Program-made: the position numbers and the translations under genes
Notes under the pieces: generated by a model
What the model was told of the DNA's origin: nothing
The model's database searches: none
Seen by the model: only the letters and a program-made list of their open reading frames with translations
In this document: positions 4,720 to 58,827 of the stretch, one piece after another
How the letters are laid out: each line of letters begins with the position of its first letter
Numbering within the stretch: the first letter of the stretch is position 1
Source of the DNA: an uncultured Pseudomonadota bacterium
GTDB lineage: Bacteria > JAMCPX01
Assembly: GCA_964547905.1 (NCBI GenBank)
Contig: CAZJPN010000050.1
Span: 11,049-75,048 of the forward strand
Reading direction: 5' to 3'
Length of the DNA: 64,000 nt

Positions 4720-4744
4720 TTTCCTTAACTCCTTTTATTGAATG

Positions 4745-4800
4745 TTTATTCCTTAATTTTGAATCTTGAATCTTTAATCTTTAATTTCTTAATCTTCTAT
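4745..4800. repeat. Degenerate 8-bp tandem array (T-AATCTT units), copy 2
   Basis: cttaattttgaatcttgaatctttaatctttaatttcttaatcttc, between leuB stop and asd start. Confidence 0.6.
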
Positions 4801-11156: not shown

Positions 11157-12443
11157 ATGGATAGACCACATTCCAGTAATTATTTTAAAAAGGCTAAAGA
11201 TCTCATGCCGGGCGGGGTCAACAGTCCTGTAAGGGCTTTTAAGGCTGTAGGAGACGATCCTATTGTCGTTACCCGTGCAAAAGGCAACAGGCTTTATGAT
11301 GCAGACGGCAACAAGTATATTGATTATTGCATGTCCTGGGGACCGATGATCCTTGGTCATGGGAATATAAAGGTGCTGAACGAAATAAGAAAGGCTATAA
11401 GGAATGGCACAAGCTTTGGTACACTATGTCCTTCAGAGATAAGGCTTGCAGAGCTTATTTTAGATGCTTACCCTTCGATAGAGCTTGTGCGCATGGTGAG
11501 TTCAGGCACAGAGGCGACCATGAGTGCTGTAAGAGTGGCACGTGCATATACAAAAAGGGATAAGATCGTAAAATTTGAAGGTGGGTATCATGGTCATTCA
11601 GACCAATTTCTCATTAAGGCTGGTTCCGGTTTAACAACACTGGGAACACCATCCAGTCCCGGTGTGCCGGAGGCATTTGCAGCAACGACACGAACGCTAC
11701 CATACAACGATTTAAATGCCGCTCAAAAACTTATTACGGAAAAGTCAAAAGAGATCGCCGCTGTTATAGTAGAACCTGTAGCAGGCAATATCGGTGTCGT
11801 ATTGCCGGATAAAGGATTCCTTGAAACTTTGAGAGAACTGACCATAAAGCATGGTATAGTCCTTATATTCGACGAGGTAATAACCGGATTCAGAATTTCC
11901 CTGTCAGGAGCACAGGATAGATTCAACATAAAACCTGATATGACAACACTCGGAAAGATCATAGGCGGCGGCTTACCTGTCGGGGCTTACGGCGGGAGAA
12001 AAGACATTATGCAGCTTATTTCGCCTGAAGGACCGGTTTATCAAGCTGGAACACTCTCTGGTAATCCTGTTGCAATGGCAGCAGGCATAGCTACTATAAA
12101 AGAGATAAAATCAAAACCATTGTTCTATAAAGATCTGGAGAAAAAAACAGAACATCTCGTGTATGGTTTAAAGGATGCTGCAAGGCTTGCAGAAAAAAAG
12201 ATAACCGTAAACTCAATAGCATCCATGTTCACGCCTTTCTTTACAGACAGACCTGTAAAAGACCTGCAATCAGCCATGACATCCGACACAAAGCAATACG
12301 CCAGTTTTTTTCATCTCATGTTTGAAAGGGGCGTTTATTTACCACCATCACAGTTTGAGGCCCATTTTGTTTCAATGGCGCACACAACCAATGACATAGA
12401 CAGGACGATAAAATATGCATACGAGGCTTTCAAGAAGCTGTGA
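11157..12443 (+). CDS. hemL: Glutamate-1-semialdehyde 2,1-aminomutase
   Basis: PGGVNSPVRAF N-terminal motif. Class-III aminotransferase fold, 428 aa. AAAGGAG RBS. Confidence 0.9.
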   Translation: MDRPHSSNYFKKAKDLMPGGVNSPVRAFKAVGDDPIVVTRAKGNRLYDADGNKYIDYCMSWGPMILGHGNIKVLNEIRKAIRNGTSFGTLCPSEIRLAELILDAYPSIELVRMVSSGTEATMSAVRVARAYTKRDKIVKFEGGYHGHSDQFLIKAGSGLTTLGTPSSPGVPEAFAATTRTLPYNDLNAAQKLITEKSKEIAAVIVEPVAGNIGVVLPDKGFLETLRELTIKHGIVLIFDEVITGFRISLSGAQDRFNIKPDMTTLGKIIGGGLPVGAYGGRKDIMQLISPEGPVYQAGTLSGNPVAMAAGIATIKEIKSKPLFYKDLEKKTEHLVYGLKDAARLAEKKITVNSIASMFTPFFTDRPVKDLQSAMTSDTKQYASFFHLMFERGVYLPPSQFEAHFVSMAHTTNDIDRTIKYAYEAFKKL

Positions 12444-12448
12444 GCGGC

Positions 12449-12477
12449 TTAAACCGTTTAAACTGTTTAAATAGTTA
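12449..12477. repeat. Intergenic copy of the 18-nt GTTTAAAC-centred minisatellite also found inside polA
   Basis: gcggcttaaACCGTTTAAACTGTTTAAATAGTtaag. Shares the exact 15-mer AACTGTTTAAATAGT with polA DNA at ~52781-52795. Confidence 0.7.
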
Positions 12478-12565
12478 AGAAAGTGGATCGCACGACTCAT
12501 CCACCCCAAGCTTCACTTGGGTGCCTGATGGGGACCCCCTTCGCTCGTTACACAAACCCCCTATT

Positions 12566-12590
12566 TTCCAAATGCATTTTTGGGGTTAAT
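12566..12590. repeat. Post-stop palindromic element (family TTAACCCGAAAAATGCATTTTTCGGGTTAA), copy at the def 3' end
   Basis: ccaaaTGCATTTTTGGGGTTAAtcc. The TTA at 12586-88 is the def stop codon (minus strand). Confidence 0.7.
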
Positions 12591-13098
12591 CCTTGCTTGA
12601 TTTCGATTCTTTTTTAAGGGATTTTATATATGCGTTTCTTTTTAAAAGAGATGCATGTTCAATGAGCGTAATACCATTGAGGTGATCCATTTCATGCTGT
12701 ATGACAGTTGCAAGCAGATCCGTAGCCTCCAAAATCAGGTCCTTGCCATTCCTATCATAGCCTTTTATCACAACCCTCGCCGCCCTTTTTACCTCTATCC
12801 GAAAATCAGGTACACTCAGACATCCTTCTTCTAGAGAAGACTCCCCTTCCGATTCAACAATAACCGGGTTTATAACAGCGATGATCCGCCTTTTATCGTC
12901 CCCAATAGGTACATCCGCTACAAACAATGCTTTTTCTTTTCCTACCTGCGTAGCAGCAAGACCTATACCTGATGCAACATGCATTGTCTCATACATATTA
13001 TCTATAAATCCCTGCAGCTCGCCATTTATATCTTTTATTTCTTTAGCCTTACGCTTCAGTATCTTTTCCGGATATCTGTATATCTTGTAGATCGACAT
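12586..13098 (-). CDS. def: Peptide deformylase
   Basis: GIGLAATQVG, EGCLSVPD and HEMDHLNG motifs. Confidence 0.92.
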   Translation of the reverse strand: MSIYKIYRYPEKILKRKAKEIKDINGELQGFIDNMYETMHVASGIGLAATQVGKEKALFVADVPIGDDKRRIIAVINPVIVESEGESSLEEGCLSVPDFRIEVKRAARVVIKGYDRNGKDLILEATDLLATVIQHEMDHLNGITLIEHASLLKRNAYIKSLKKESKSSKD

Positions 13099-40703: not shown

Positions 40704-41683
40704 AAATAATCATGGGGAAAAGCATGCACAAAAACAACATACCGTCTTTATCCTCAAAAACAAAACATTCTGTAAATACAAAGGGATCCCACGCTGGGTT
40801 TACCCTTGCTCCTGCCTTAACCGGAAAGGTAAAGGAATTCTTTTCTCAATTCTCCACAAAAAAGATCAAAGAGCAACTATCCGGTATAACTATGTGGGCA
40901 ACCTCTATGGAGATTGATGAATTCGGACTCGATCCGATATTTACGGCAAAAGCAAAGGTCTTCTTCGATCTGCTTTATGACAAATGGTGGAGGATAGAAG
41001 CTATCGACATGCATAACATACCTTCGTCAGGCAGGGCATTGCTCGTTTCCAATCATTCAGGGGGAATCCCGATAGACGGAGCCATGATCGTAACATCCAT
41101 TGTCAAAAAACATCCTGTTAAACGGATCGCAAGACCACTCGTGGAAGACTTTGCATATTACATGCCGTTCGTGAATTCGTTTCTTATAAAAACAGGAAGT
41201 GTAAGGGCATCCCAGGAAAATGCGGAAAGATTACTCGAAAAGGAACAACTTGTCATAGTCTTCCCGGAAGGCATAAAAGGCATAGGTAAGCCTTTTAAGG
41301 ACAGGTATAAATTGCAGAGATTCGGAAGGGGTGGATACATAAAACTTGCAATAAAAACACATTCACCGATTATACCGGTAGCAGTTGTCGGTGCAGAAGA
41401 AGCCTATCCGATTATAGGAAGAATCGACTGGCTTGGTAAAATATTCGGCGTTCCGTACCTCCCGACAACACTATTTTTTCCATGGCTCGGACCTATTGGA
41501 GCAATACCACTTCCAACAAAGTGGTATATAAAATACGGCAAACCGATTGACATGGAAAAGTATAGTGAGCATGACATCGATGACGATATTCTTATAAACA
41601 GATTATCCGAAAATGTAAGAACACGTATACAACAAATGTTAACAGAAATGCTCAAGCAAAGAAAATCCATATTCTTCGGCTAA
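40700..41683 (+). CDS. Lysophospholipid (1-acyl-sn-glycerol-3-phosphate-type) acyltransferase
   Basis: Acyltransferase HxxxxD motif (…LVSNHSGGIPIDGAMI…) and FPEG block (…VIVFPEGIKGIG…). Confidence 0.8.
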   Translation: MKIIMGKSMHKNNIPSLSSKTKHSVNTKGSHAGFTLAPALTGKVKEFFSQFSTKKIKEQLSGITMWATSMEIDEFGLDPIFTAKAKVFFDLLYDKWWRIEAIDMHNIPSSGRALLVSNHSGGIPIDGAMIVTSIVKKHPVKRIARPLVEDFAYYMPFVNSFLIKTGSVRASQENAERLLEKEQLVIVFPEGIKGIGKPFKDRYKLQRFGRGGYIKLAIKTHSPIIPVAVVGAEEAYPIIGRIDWLGKIFGVPYLPTTLFFPWLGPIGAIPLPTKWYIKYGKPIDMEKYSEHDIDDDILINRLSENVRTRIQQMLTEMLKQRKSIFFG

Positions 41684-41712
41684 CTCGCAAAAATTGCATT
41701 TTTCGGTTCAAA
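41680..41712. repeat. Post-stop palindromic element, copy at the acyltransferase 3' end
   Basis: cTAACTCGCAAAAATTGCATTTTTCGGTTcaaac. The TAA at 41681-83 is the acyltransferase stop. Confidence 0.7.
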
Positions 41713-41754
41713 CACTTGACTATAAAAATAATTTCTACATAATGAAGTCTTCAT

Positions 41755-41827
<73 letters not shown>

Positions 41828-41958
41828 TTTTGCTTTTCAATAGATTAGTCGATCCTCTCTACGTCTCAATTCACTCCTGCTACCGTTTTTGCTATAATAT
41901 TGTTGAAACTCTGTTAACCCAAAAACCTTATCTCTTTAAAATTTGTAGCCTCGCCTCA

Positions 41959-51040: not shown

Positions 51041-51121
51041 GCTCAATCTTGAATCTTACGTTTGGAGTTCTTAGTTCTTAGTTCTTAGTTTTTAATTTTG
51101 AATCTTTAATCTTGAATTTCT
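51041..51121. repeat. Degenerate 7-bp tandem array (AGTTCTT x3 then AATTTTG/AATCTTT/AATCTTG), copy 3
   Basis: gaatcttacgtttggAGTTCTTAGTTCTTAGTTCTTAGTTTTTAATTTTGAATCTTTAATCTTGAATTTC, directly after the polA stop. Confidence 0.65.
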
Positions 51122-53821
51122 TTAAGCATCCGCCCATGTCTTGCCGAAACTTATGGATACTTTAAGAGGAACGAGCAGCTTCATCGCATCTTCCATCTGC
51201 TCTTTTAAAGCCACTGAAAATGCTTCGACCTGTTCATCCTTGATCTCAAATAATAGCTCGTCATGTATCTGAAGGATCATTCTTGTGTCAAACCCTTTTC
51301 TTTTTATCATGTTGTCAACCCTGAGCATTGCCACCTTTATCAGATCAGCGGCACTGCCCTGCACAGGGGTGTTGATGGCTATACGCTGATAAGCCGGGTT
51401 ATCAAGCGTTTTAGGAATATACCTGCGTCTGCCGAGGATCGTACCGACATACCCTGTCTGCCGTACACCGTTCAGTATATCATCTATATAAGCCCTTACG
51501 CCCTTGTATTCGTTAAAATACGCATCTATGATAACCTGCGACTGGTCGGGTGATATATTGAGCTGTTTTGACAGCCCGTAAGCAGACATGCCGTACATAA
51601 TGCCGAAGTTTACGACCTTAGCTGTGTTCCTCATCTGCGAAGTAATATCCGGTACCGGTACCTGAAATATGCTTGATGCAGTTGTGGTATGGATATCCTG
51701 ATCATGCATAAATGCATCGATCAACACTTCATCCGATGAAAGGTGTGCCATGATCCTGAGTTCGATCTGAGAATAATCAGCACTCAATATAGAATAACCT
51801 TCATCAGCTATAAACGCCTTCCTTATCATCTTACCATACTCATCCTTGATAGGGACATTCTGGAGATTTGGTTCGCTGCTTGAAAGCCTGCCTGTAGCAG
51901 TGCCTGTTTGTATAAAATGGGTATGTATTCTGTGTGTATGCGGATTCACGTATTCAGGTAATACATCTATAAAGCTGTTTTTAAGCTTTGACAGGTTGCG
52001 GTGTTCAAGCAGGTAATTGATAAACGGATGTTTGTCCTTTAGCTCGTTTAACACCTCATTATCCGTAGAATAACCGGTTTTTGTCTTTTTTACAGGAGAC
52101 AGTTTGAGCTCTTCAAACAGGATAGCAGCTATCTGCTTTGGCGAATCCGGATTAAAAGAGCTTGCTGTATATGACCGCATACCGCCCATAAGACTATCAA
52201 GCTGTTTTTTAAATCGCTCTGACAGCTCTTTCAGATATAGATAGTCAACCTTTATCCCTGTATACTCCATCCTTGCAAGGACTGCTGATAGCGGCATCTC
52301 TATCTTGTAGAATAACGGCTCTAAGGCATCATCCTTCAGCCGCTGTGTGTAAAGTTCTGCAAGCCTTTTTAACTGTAAAGCACATTTTATCAGATAAGCA
52401 GCCCTGCCCTGCCATGCTTGCTTATTATTATTGAGCATATGAGGAGGTTCAAGCCGTTCAAACAGTTCAAGCGGTTCAGGCGGTTTAAACGGTTGCAACG
52501 GTTTAAACTGTTCCAACGGTGCGGGCGGTATTTGCTCTCCGAATTCGGATAATGATAAAGACTCTATAGAATAGCTTTTTGCTTCAGGATTGCAAAGGTA
52601 TGCAGCCAGCTCCACGGAAAACAGTTTTGCATTTACATTAATATTATTTTCCATGCACAATTTATAAACAGCCTTTGCATCATGCACAATCACTCCCGTA
52701 TCATAAGAAAGCACTGTCTTTATGACATCTATAGCCATTGGAATGGTGGAACCGTTTAAACGGTTGGAACTGTTTGAACTGTTTAAATAGTACGCTCTGT
52801 CGGCATGGATGACCATTTCATTGTTTACAAAGAATAAAGAGATCTCTTCTGCACGCCGTATTACATCTTCGATATCTTTAATATTTTTTATCTCTGTATA
52901 ATCAGATTCTTCATTTGATACCTCTGGTTTGCCGAGCTTATCTATAAGCTTATGAAACTCAAGTTCGGAGAACAGCTTTATCAGCCTTGCTCTTTGTTCG
53001 TCCGTAGCATTGCTAAAGACAGAGGGTGGCAATCTTAATGACTCAAATTCTATATCAACAGGTACATCGTGTTTCAATTGTACCAGTGGTTTCGTGATGC
53101 TGTATAATTGTTCTTTTGAATTTATAAGGGAAGTCTTTATACGCTGATTTGTAATCTCATCAATATGATCATAAATGCCGTCGATACTATGATATTTCAT
53201 AAGCAGATCCATTGCTGTTTTTTTGCCGATACCCTGCACGCCCTTTATATTATCGATACTGTCGCCTGTAAGAGTAAGAAATTCGGTCATCTGTAAAGGA
53301 CTTACACCAAATCTCTCAACCACATCATCGGCTGTTATCCATTGATCCTTCATCGTATCCAGCATAACAACCTCGTCAGATACGACAGACATAAGGTCTT
53401 TATCACTACCGATAATAACAACACCGAACCCCGCTGCCTTTGCTCTGTCTGTAATAGTCGCTATAACGTCATCAGCTTCGAACCCCTCCTTGAATATATG
53501 CTTTACTCTCAGAGCATCGGTGATTTCGAAGATATAGGGAAACTGGACTGAAAGGTCATCGGGAGGAGCGCCTCTGTTTGCCTTATATTCCGTATCAATC
53601 TGCTCTCGAAATGTGGGCCCTTTCGAATCGAACACAACCAAAAGGTAATTCGGTTTGTATTTCTCTATAGTTTTTATCAGCATGTTTGCATAGCCGTATA
53701 CGGCATTCGTCGGTATACCCTTTTTATTGGTTAATGGCGGGAGTGCATGGTATGCACGAAAAATATAGGTGCTGCCATCAACGATAAACAGCAGCGGACG
53801 TTTTGCAATTGGAATTGTCAT
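51122..53821 (-). CDS. polA: DNA polymerase I (5'-nuclease, vestigial 3'-5' exonuclease region, polymerase domain)
   Basis: N-terminal 5'-3' exonuclease motifs, C-terminal family-A motifs (…RRAAKTINFGIIYG-like RNTAKVVNFGIMYGMSAYGL…, …QIHDELLFE…). The central region carries in-frame 18-nt tandem repeats (protein LEQFKPLQPFKPPEPLELFERLEP and NSSNSSNRLNGS). Confidence 0.92.
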   Translation of the reverse strand: MTIPIAKRPLLFIVDGSTYIFRAYHALPPLTNKKGIPTNAVYGYANMLIKTIEKYKPNYLLVVFDSKGPTFREQIDTEYKANRGAPPDDLSVQFPYIFEITDALRVKHIFKEGFEADDVIATITDRAKAAGFGVVIIGSDKDLMSVVSDEVVMLDTMKDQWITADDVVERFGVSPLQMTEFLTLTGDSIDNIKGVQGIGKKTAMDLLMKYHSIDGIYDHIDEITNQRIKTSLINSKEQLYSITKPLVQLKHDVPVDIEFESLRLPPSVFSNATDEQRARLIKLFSELEFHKLIDKLGKPEVSNEESDYTEIKNIKDIEDVIRRAEEISLFFVNNEMVIHADRAYYLNSSNSSNRLNGSTIPMAIDVIKTVLSYDTGVIVHDAKAVYKLCMENNINVNAKLFSVELAAYLCNPEAKSYSIESLSLSEFGEQIPPAPLEQFKPLQPFKPPEPLELFERLEPPHMLNNNKQAWQGRAAYLIKCALQLKRLAELYTQRLKDDALEPLFYKIEMPLSAVLARMEYTGIKVDYLYLKELSERFKKQLDSLMGGMRSYTASSFNPDSPKQIAAILFEELKLSPVKKTKTGYSTDNEVLNELKDKHPFINYLLEHRNLSKLKNSFIDVLPEYVNPHTHRIHTHFIQTGTATGRLSSSEPNLQNVPIKDEYGKMIRKAFIADEGYSILSADYSQIELRIMAHLSSDEVLIDAFMHDQDIHTTTASSIFQVPVPDITSQMRNTAKVVNFGIMYGMSAYGLSKQLNISPDQSQVIIDAYFNEYKGVRAYIDDILNGVRQTGYVGTILGRRRYIPKTLDNPAYQRIAINTPVQGSAADLIKVAMLRVDNMIKRKGFDTRMILQIHDELLFEIKDEQVEAFSVALKEQMEDAMKLLVPLKVSISFGKTWADA

Positions 53822-58389: not shown

Positions 58390-58827
58390 ATGAAAAAAAC
58401 AATTATGGCAGGTATGGCAGTCCTTATAGGACTGATGATATCGGGGAGTGTTTATGCTATGGGCCCTGGTGCATGGCAAGGTAGAGGTTTTACAGCAGTT
58501 GCAAACCTAAACATAGAGTCTGTAAAGAATTTTCTAAAAGATACTTCTGCAACACGTAATGAACTTATCATAAAACGTATTGAGCTGGTGAAAGCATACC
58601 AGGAAAAAGAAGTAAATTACGACAGGATAGCAGCGATACAAAAAGAGATTATAGACCTCAAAACAAAGATCCTTGATGCTGCACGGAAATACGGACTCGA
58701 TAAAGAGCTTGGACCATGGTTCGGCAGAATGGGACATGGCATGATGGGAAAAGGTATGAAACCTGGGATGAAAGGTATGAGACCGGGCGGCATGATGGGT
58801 TGTTCACCATGTAATACACCTCAATAA
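58390..58827 (+). CDS. Periplasmic Spy/CpxP/ZraP-like protein with a Met/Gly-rich C-terminal tail
   Basis: Signal peptide MKKTIMAGMAVLIGLMISGSVYA, a helical LTxxQ-like core, and C-terminus GRMGHGMMGKGMKPGMKGMRPGGMMGCSPC. Confidence 0.5.
   Translation: MKKTIMAGMAVLIGLMISGSVYAMGPGAWQGRGFTAVANLNIESVKNFLKDTSATRNELIIKRIELVKAYQEKEVNYDRIAAIQKEIIDLKTKILDAARKYGLDKELGPWFGRMGHGMMGKGMKPGMKGMRPGGMMGCSPCNTPQ

Follow-up and report, generated by a model that had tools for sequence, protein, structure and literature searches.

Long simple-sequence repeats inside prokaryotic genes, surveyed by Mrazek and co-workers (work summarised in PMC4679880), include in-frame repeats whose units are a multiple of three nucleotides (nt) long and which are known to vary between strains. 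A second described group, the TAACTGA heptamer repeats of Beggiatoaceae, cyanobacteria and Bacteroidetes together with the cyanobacterial short tandemly repeated repetitive (STRR) sequences, comprises one unit that recurs in many small tandem sets, as units resembling it do not, with a patchy distribution across phyla, the mechanism of spread not being known (PMC4679880). Here, we describe tandem arrays of a 9-nt unit, N-GTTYRAAC, in a 64,000-nt stretch of DNA (hereafter, the window) from an uncultured Pseudomonadota bacterium (contig CAZJPN010000050.1, positions 11,049–75,048 of the forward strand). Two of the arrays lie in frame within polA, the gene for DNA polymerase I (Pol I; 899 aa; 51122–53821, minus strand; assigned from its open reading frame (ORF), Pfam domains and a structure match), and a third lies in the spacer downstream of hemL. 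We consider it likely that they belong to a dispersed family of variable-number tandem repeats (VNTRs), a form of long simple-sequence repeat, which is driven by slippage and is tolerated since its 9-nt unit equals three codons.

The nonamer family shares features with both described groups. Like the VNTRs of the Mrazek survey, it consists of short units arranged head to tail, varies in copy number between strains and, with a unit length that is a multiple of three, is tolerated in ORFs if stop-free; unlike these, a single unit with a palindromic core recurs at several coding and non-coding loci and in distant phyla, and the arrays described here sit in a housekeeping replication and repair enzyme, whereas VNTRs are usually discussed for surface or contingency genes. 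With the TAACTGA and STRR repeats, it has in common the patchy spread over phyla, the many copies positioned just upstream of genes and, possibly, the many small tandem sets of one unit, but the core is palindromic, the taxonomic range is different, the unit has 9 nt instead of 7 and can hence lie in frame in genes, and the arrays are mixtures of the transition variants GTTTAAAC, GTTTGAAC, GTTCAAAC and GTTCGAAC. Rather than being heptameric and mainly intergenic, the sets in the window have a 9-nt unit, and two of the three are coding. In the open-access literature, no two-unit string of the nonamer family turned up in any paper and no description of the family was found, and a search on nonamer or 9-bp tandem repeats and on Nitrospirae repeats returned nothing relevant.

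The unit comprises a palindromic 8-mer core and one free base, together three codons in length. At all three loci, Tandem Repeats Finder (TRF) returned a basic period of 9, with 18 and 27 appearing as overlapping rows that are multiples of 9, so the 18-nt unit proposed in a preliminary description of this region was not borne out; the strings, coordinates and translations that it gave for both polA blocks and for the spacer array were as described. The larger polA block (block A; 52442–52519, minus strand; aa 435–460; PLEQFKPLQPFKPPEPLELFERLEPP; delimited via TRF and a codon view) contains about eight units in the codon phase C-CNG-TTY-RAA, which yields P-[LF]-[EKQ] tripeptides (on the coding strand CCG TTT AAA, CCG TTG CAA, CTG TTT GAA, etc.). 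TRF rows of periods 9, 18 and 27 extend across 52446–52520 here, with 6.4 copies of period 9 at 52446–52503. Block B (52745–52789, minus strand; aa 345–359; YLNSSNSSNRLNGST; delimited in the same way), which lies ~300 nt from block A, holds about five units in the phase NGT-TYA-AAC, yielding x-[SL]-N tripeptides (CGT TTA AAC, AGT TCA AAC, etc.), with TRF rows of periods 9 and 18 across 52747–52784 and 4.0 copies of period 9 at 52749–52784. The third array (12447–12472, no strand assigned; GCTTAAAC-C-GTTTAAAC-T-GTTTAAAT) is non-coding, consists of three units (2.6 copies of period 9 at 12449–12471 via TRF) and starts 3 nt past the stop codon of hemL (glutamate-1-semialdehyde aminomutase; 11157–12443, plus strand), in the spacer between this gene and the convergent def (peptide deformylase; 12586–13098, minus strand; assigned through Pfam PF01327 on orthologous genes). 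The sharing of the unit between polA and a non-coding locus, reported in the preliminary description along with an exact common 15-mer, was confirmed (12461–12475 in the hemL spacer and 52777–52791 in block B), as was the reading of the spacer array as a polA block less 18 nt: block B minus 18 nt gives a 24-nt identity with the hemL spacer, the degenerate end unit included (read directly from the letters).

Three or more successive units spaced 9 nt apart (each unit with at most two mismatches from GTTTAAAC) occur four times in the window, all within the three loci, whereas 20 mononucleotide shuffles of the window had 0.1 such runs on average and never more than 1, and GTTTAAAC itself was counted five times against 1.5 expected. 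The window contains these three GTTYRAAC sets and no other 9-mer array of more than three copies. Outside the arrays, GTTYRAAC singletons in the 64-kb window are neither enriched nor avoided (five against 4.4 expected), which rules out a restriction-site-like avoidance or enrichment of the motif. Rfam returned no match at the arrays, its sole match in the window being a tRNA at 41755–41827, and a scan of the hemL–def spacer found no terminator-like site; a known structured RNA or a terminator was thus ruled out as the identity of the arrays. The units abut with a single variable base between cores and leave no unique spacers, which rules out a CRISPR array.

Given that one N-GTTYRAAC unit is read in two codon phases inside polA and is untranslated after hemL, we regard the repeat as a feature of the DNA. 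Pfam detected no repeat family in the Pol I protein, where the same unit is translated as P-F-K in block A but as x-S/L-N in block B, and a protein tandem-repeat family (e.g., collagen-like G-X-Y) was ruled out since the peptide depends on the DNA phase. The third phase of GTTTAAAC and GTTTGAAC yields TAA or TGA, and the palindromic core offers equal phase choices on both strands; therefore, only two peptide types are tolerable. The hemL array is untranslated in every relative compared, and longer HemL homologues (436 and 463 aa) do not read through it, as their C-termini are identical and the length differs at the N-terminus.

Via Pfam, the Pol I protein (an identical protein is recorded in NCBI, on a 76,465-bp contig) displayed two 5′-3′ exonuclease domains (PF02739 and PF01367, aa 11–265) and a DNA_pol_A domain (PF00476, aa 529–898), and its best solved-structure match was the full-length Pol I 6vde (E 1e-159). 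The repeats lie in frame between these domains, in what the preliminary description had taken for a vestigial 3′-5′ exonuclease, and this placement agrees with our findings: the region gave only a faint PF22619 match and no PF01612, a domain which polA relatives at 40% identity carry. At the positions that we take to correspond to the Klenow Exo I, II and III motifs, it reads VNNEM, HDAKAV and AAYLIKCA, with the catalytic acidic residues replaced, and the 3′-5′ exonuclease domain of this Pol I is, as judged from its sequence, degenerate and catalytically dead. An AlphaFold2 model based on an alignment of 17 sequences had a mean predicted local distance difference test (pLDDT) score of 81, with values below 50 at aa 350–360 (block B) and aa 436–470 (block A) and of 80–93 in the adjoining segments; both blocks are predicted disordered surface loops in the 3′-5′ exonuclease-like domain. 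This region is the most length-variable part of the family alignment, and block A, which is proline-rich, directly precedes the long helix that opens the polymerase domain.

We compared polA with family members at 96%, 77% and 62–70% identity (17 sequences in the protein alignment). At 62–70% identity, both blocks are absent and most of the orthologues are 31–37 aa shorter, while at 77% block B is absent and the site of block A is occupied by an unrelated stretch of equal length. The earlier proposal that the blocks are insertions relative to orthologues is therefore upheld for block B in both comparisons, but for block A only at 62–70%. None of the period-9 GTTYRAAC sets was present in 22.7 kb of the 77% relative. 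Against the 96% relative (JGI contig Ga0502072_00067, L001; 95.5% nucleotide identity in polA), the sole internal polA indel in the DNA alignment is one 9-nt unit within block A (AACCGCCTG on the coding strand, P-E-P; 52477–52485, minus strand; placement ambiguous by register), which is present here and absent there. This is one of only two coding indels over ~22 kb of 94.4%-identical synteny. The shorter allele was found on three contigs that carry P0001 and on one further contig that carries P0122, and the polA ORF is open in both length alleles.

The hemL–def spacer was recovered from four relatives (L122 to L125). In L122 and L123, which come from JGI and NCBI assemblies and whose hemL genes are 94% and 90% identical, it holds four units versus the three seen here, a clean 9-nt indel, while a further 90% relative (L124) has a 28-nt spacer without the array, and the spacer of an 83% relative (L125) likewise lacks it. 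The same arrays are present in independent NCBI and JGI assemblies. The arrays are polymorphic in 9-nt steps and have been gained or lost over short evolutionary distances. The VNTR with frame-preserving length changes that had been proposed for polA is thus retained, with unit steps in both polA and the hemL spacer (three, four and no units), but with a step of 9 nt rather than 18. With contingency loci, the arrays would share slippage-driven gain and loss of units, but they cause no frame shift, do not lie in a promoter spacer and permit no on/off switching in polA; phase variation was ruled out, given that a 9-nt unit cannot shift the frame and that the ORF is open in both alleles.

Several further observations concern these relatives. 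On one JGI contig (15,916 bp), gene calling splits the polA of the 96% relative into two ORFs (P0122/P0123) of 585 and 312 aa; the break at ~aa 585 is far from the arrays, which rules out an array effect, and it is probably a frameshift or an assembly error. The other coding indel against the 96% relative is 21 nt long (window ~58729–58780), falls in a 138-aa hypothetical ORF and adjoins a 15-nt tandem repeat (ATGGGAAAAGGCATG). The hemL–def spacer includes a 41-nt segment (~12508–12548) that contains a small inverted repeat (CACCCCAAG...CTTGGGTG) and is missing in L122, whose spacer is collinear apart from this. Logan contigs (L134 to L137; SRR12217121 and SRR12217123) matched both window ends at 100%, the arrays lying outside their coverage, and by this match both runs probably contain the source population. 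An apparent heptamer copy difference between L134 and L135 (206 versus 213 aa) was dismissed as a matter of the start-codon call only, the DNA being identical. A search of metagenome contigs with the exonuclease-domain segment gave one distant match only (32% identity). Relatives of the window organism are labelled 'Deltaproteobacteria bacterium' by NCBI, and the nearest named relatives by hemL are Nitrospirota, at ~60% identity.

We scanned species genomes, each species being represented by a single genome, for GTTNNAAC-N units in uninterrupted runs of four; this returned at least 119 loci, and the matches listed fall into two classes. The first consists of perfect arrays of arbitrary 9-mers from all kinds of bacteria, which are generic microsatellite-like repeats. 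The second, hereafter YR-type, consists of heterogeneous arrays mixing GTTTAAAC, GTTTGAAC, GTTCAAAC and GTTCGAAC and accounts for ~62 of the at least 119 loci. Among the matches listed, about half of these ~62 come from Nitrospirota/Thermodesulfovibrionales metagenome-assembled genomes (MAGs; 24) and anammox Brocadiaceae/Scalinduaceae of the Planctomycetota (8), and the remainder include Omnitrophota and Thermodesulfobacteriota, with several loci from one MAG. At the phylum level, at least four groups carry the unit. By our own rough estimate, about 1% of species genomes are from Nitrospirota, and the distribution looks like a strong Nitrospirota enrichment of YR-type arrays, in a scan whose pattern was restricted to GTTNNAAC and which comprises at least 119 loci. 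The arrays are therefore no peculiarity of polA but belong to a repeat family that other phyla carry in many of their genes and spacers.

The 8-kb loci around these matches contain further family arrays that were not selected by the scan, up to six in 1.3 kb (L006) and five in L044. Many arrays are intergenic and end 10–20 nt upstream of a Shine-Dalgarno-like sequence, while in-frame arrays are found in a NifEN-like protein, CobQ, a DEAD-box helicase, RecJ and Cas6-like proteins, where the resulting tripeptides are GSN/GLN/SSN/RLN or PFE/PFK/QFK and thus correspond to the two phases used in polA. In the Nitrospirota and anammox loci, each period-9 array with 3.5 or more copies is a member of the GTTYRAAC family, a biased sample given that the loci were selected by GTTNNAAC. 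The flanks of 70 arrays have nothing in common beyond partial units. Repetitive extragenic palindromic sequences, bacterial interspersed mosaic elements (REP/BIME) and miniature inverted-repeat transposable elements (MITEs) are likewise short palindromes dispersed in the genome, often in spacers after stop codons, but the nonamer arrays differ from them in strict 9-nt tandem repetition and in-frame placement in ORFs; a mobile element with conserved ends was ruled out by the non-conserved flanks and the lack of terminal inverted repeats or target-site duplications. Only four loci among 2.9 million viral contigs match four YR-type units, a rarity which rules out a phage origin of the arrays.

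Within the scanned genomes, we did note arrays inside or directly after Cas6-like RAMP genes of Nitrospirota and Brocadia MAGs (L026, 2433–3860; L006, 2361–3607; L097, 192–541). In L026, they lie on either side of small accessory cassettes that are inserted in a cas locus and comprise an antitoxin/toxin pair, a four-helix-bundle protein and an ORF6N-type protein. Syntrophorhabdus MAGs carry many 9-nt arrays of another unit, which is non-palindromic (GTTCCAAC-G / GTTGGAAC-C), at several loci per genome (L014, L020, L058, L073, L084, L088 and L104).

The polA arrays may have been seeded from ancestral codons that were already unit-like and then grown in place by 9-nt duplications. Array-free relatives keep Y-Y-[LI]-N at the start of block B (TAT TAT ATA AAC GGC ACC in the 77% relative) and, where block A ends, G-[LM]-F-[ED] (e.g., CTT TTC GAA), and both TAT TTA AAC (Y-L-N) and CTG TTT GAA C (L-F-E, that is, CTN TTY GAA) are near-perfect units; because these conserved flanking codons resemble the unit, we infer in-place seeding of both arrays. 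The arrays would then gain and lose whole units through replication slippage or misalignment, which the self-complementarity of the unit, via hairpins in single-stranded DNA, may aid. In CTG/CAG hairpin expansions, self-complementary units can similarly fold in single-stranded DNA and favour slippage, but the unit here is 9 nt long, the arrays are short (3–20 units) and the hairpins are only modestly more stable than shuffles. When folded as single-stranded DNA, the plus strands of block A (z = −2.9) and block B (z = −2.3) were more stable than their shuffles, and slippage aided by hairpins is plausible, though without strong support. MutS probably recognises loops as large as 9 nt only inefficiently. 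The arrays would persist because 9 nt equals three codons, two of the three GTTTRAAC phases are stop-free and the host loops tolerate low-complexity insertions, and the polA arrays would be near-neutral passengers that alter loop length only, rather than functional parts of Pol I.

A number of observations weigh against growth by simple slippage. Four of the six strands or alleles folded, the hemL arrays among them, were no more stable than shuffles, and few sequences stand behind both the neutrality and the seeding scenario. Slippage also leaves unexplained the recurrence of the unit at separate loci and in distant phyla, the clustering of arrays, and the fact that, in the Nitrospirota and anammox loci (biased through their choice by GTTNNAAC), every period-9 array of at least 3.5 copies is of this family. 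In addition, the 24-nt stretch shared by the hemL array and block B, with its degenerate end unit, and the mere 300 nt that separate two of the three window arrays could mean copying between loci rather than independent growth. An alternative is that a sequence-specific active process makes or spreads the arrays, so that those of polA and hemL would be its products and not those of generic slippage. Such a process could consist in binding, nicking or replication stalling by a protein at GTTYRAAC, in the templated addition of repeats when breaks are repaired, or in ectopic gene conversion between arrays. The occurrence of one unit in at least four phylum-level groups, with about half of the ~62 YR-type loci listed in Nitrospirota (24) and anammox bacteria (8), would fit such a process, as would the several YR-type loci from one MAG, the local clustering (six arrays in 1.3 kb in L006, five in L044, two in polA), the 24-nt identity, the lack of any other 9-mer at 3.5 or more copies in the Nitrospirota and anammox loci compared, and the one cas locus with arrays flanking accessory cassettes. 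However, the arrays have no conserved flanks or terminal structures, no candidate gene was found, singletons of GTTYRAAC show neither enrichment nor avoidance in the window, viral contigs rarely carry the arrays (4 loci in 2.9 million), and the unit-like ancestral codons at both polA sites fit a local origin; the scan, being limited to GTTNNAAC, offers no specificity contrast with other palindromic 9-mers. On balance, we regard an active process as rather unlikely, and are slightly more doubtful still of the specific proposal that the arrays mark the activity of a dedicated sequence-specific mechanism, distributed horizontally and common to Nitrospirota, anammox Planctomycetota, Omnitrophota, some Thermodesulfobacteriota and the lineage studied here. 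If it were true, a binding or nicking protein, or templated addition at breaks, would start arrays and extend them, both in spacers and in frame in housekeeping genes, and disordered tripeptide insertions as well as recombination or regulatory sites would have an origin not recognised before.

Selection at the protein level, in which the blocks adjust the spacing of the Pol I domains as linkers of a flexible or proline-rich kind or as interaction motifs and the similarity to the hemL DNA is incidental, would suit the proline-rich character (P-x-x) of block A, its place directly before the polymerase-domain helix and the variable length of the region across the family. We consider it highly unlikely, since one DNA unit gives two unrelated peptides in polA and is non-coding after hemL, relatives at 77% identity and below manage without the repeats, the number of units is not constant between 96% relatives, arrays of the same DNA are present elsewhere in spacers and in proteins unrelated to Pol I, and both blocks are predicted to be disordered. 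Marginally less probable again is a role as cis-regulatory DNA or RNA elements (arrays of binding sites, or structures in 3′ or 5′ untranslated regions), the hemL copy being functional and the polA copies spill-over: the hemL array does begin 3 nt past a stop codon between convergent genes, many arrays elsewhere end 10–20 nt before a Shine-Dalgarno-like sequence, and the TAACTGA heptamer repeats have been suggested to act in translation (PMC4679880), but the spacer has no terminator-like site and no Rfam match, a 90% relative lacks the array in the same spacer, and the hemL array folds no better than shuffles. As for chance similarity or an assembly artefact, a shared 15-mer within 64 kb is by itself near expectation (N^2/4^15, ~4 pairs by our own estimate), but arrays of at least three units were observed four times versus 0.1 in shuffles and the same arrays recur in independent NCBI and JGI assemblies, so that this explanation is refuted and retains next to no probability.

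Read as a slippage-driven VNTR family, the odd peptides in this Pol I would be recent, variable, DNA-driven insertions in dispensable loops, not to be annotated or modelled as functional motifs, and GTTYRAAC arrays could be used as strain markers. A palindromic nonamer found in spacers and housekeeping genes of several anaerobic phyla would be a coding-capable counterpart of the cyanobacterial and Beggiatoaceae heptamer families. If its specificity held genome-wide, it would offer a tractable case for why one short unit is prone to expansion across lineages and for how low-complexity insertions enter conserved proteins.

The window also contains a second tandem family with 7-nt units (GATTCAA, GATTAAA, AAGAACT and variants), which is intergenic at 356–429, 4738–4796 and 51066–51119. 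The last of these arrays directly follows the polA stop codon and is absent from the 96% relative, which has unrelated sequence in this spacer. Collinearity with the 96% relative is lost at ~41000–41915, beside the lone tRNA gene (41755–41827), with no clean alignment beyond, which suggests that the region near this tRNA may be variable or integration-prone.

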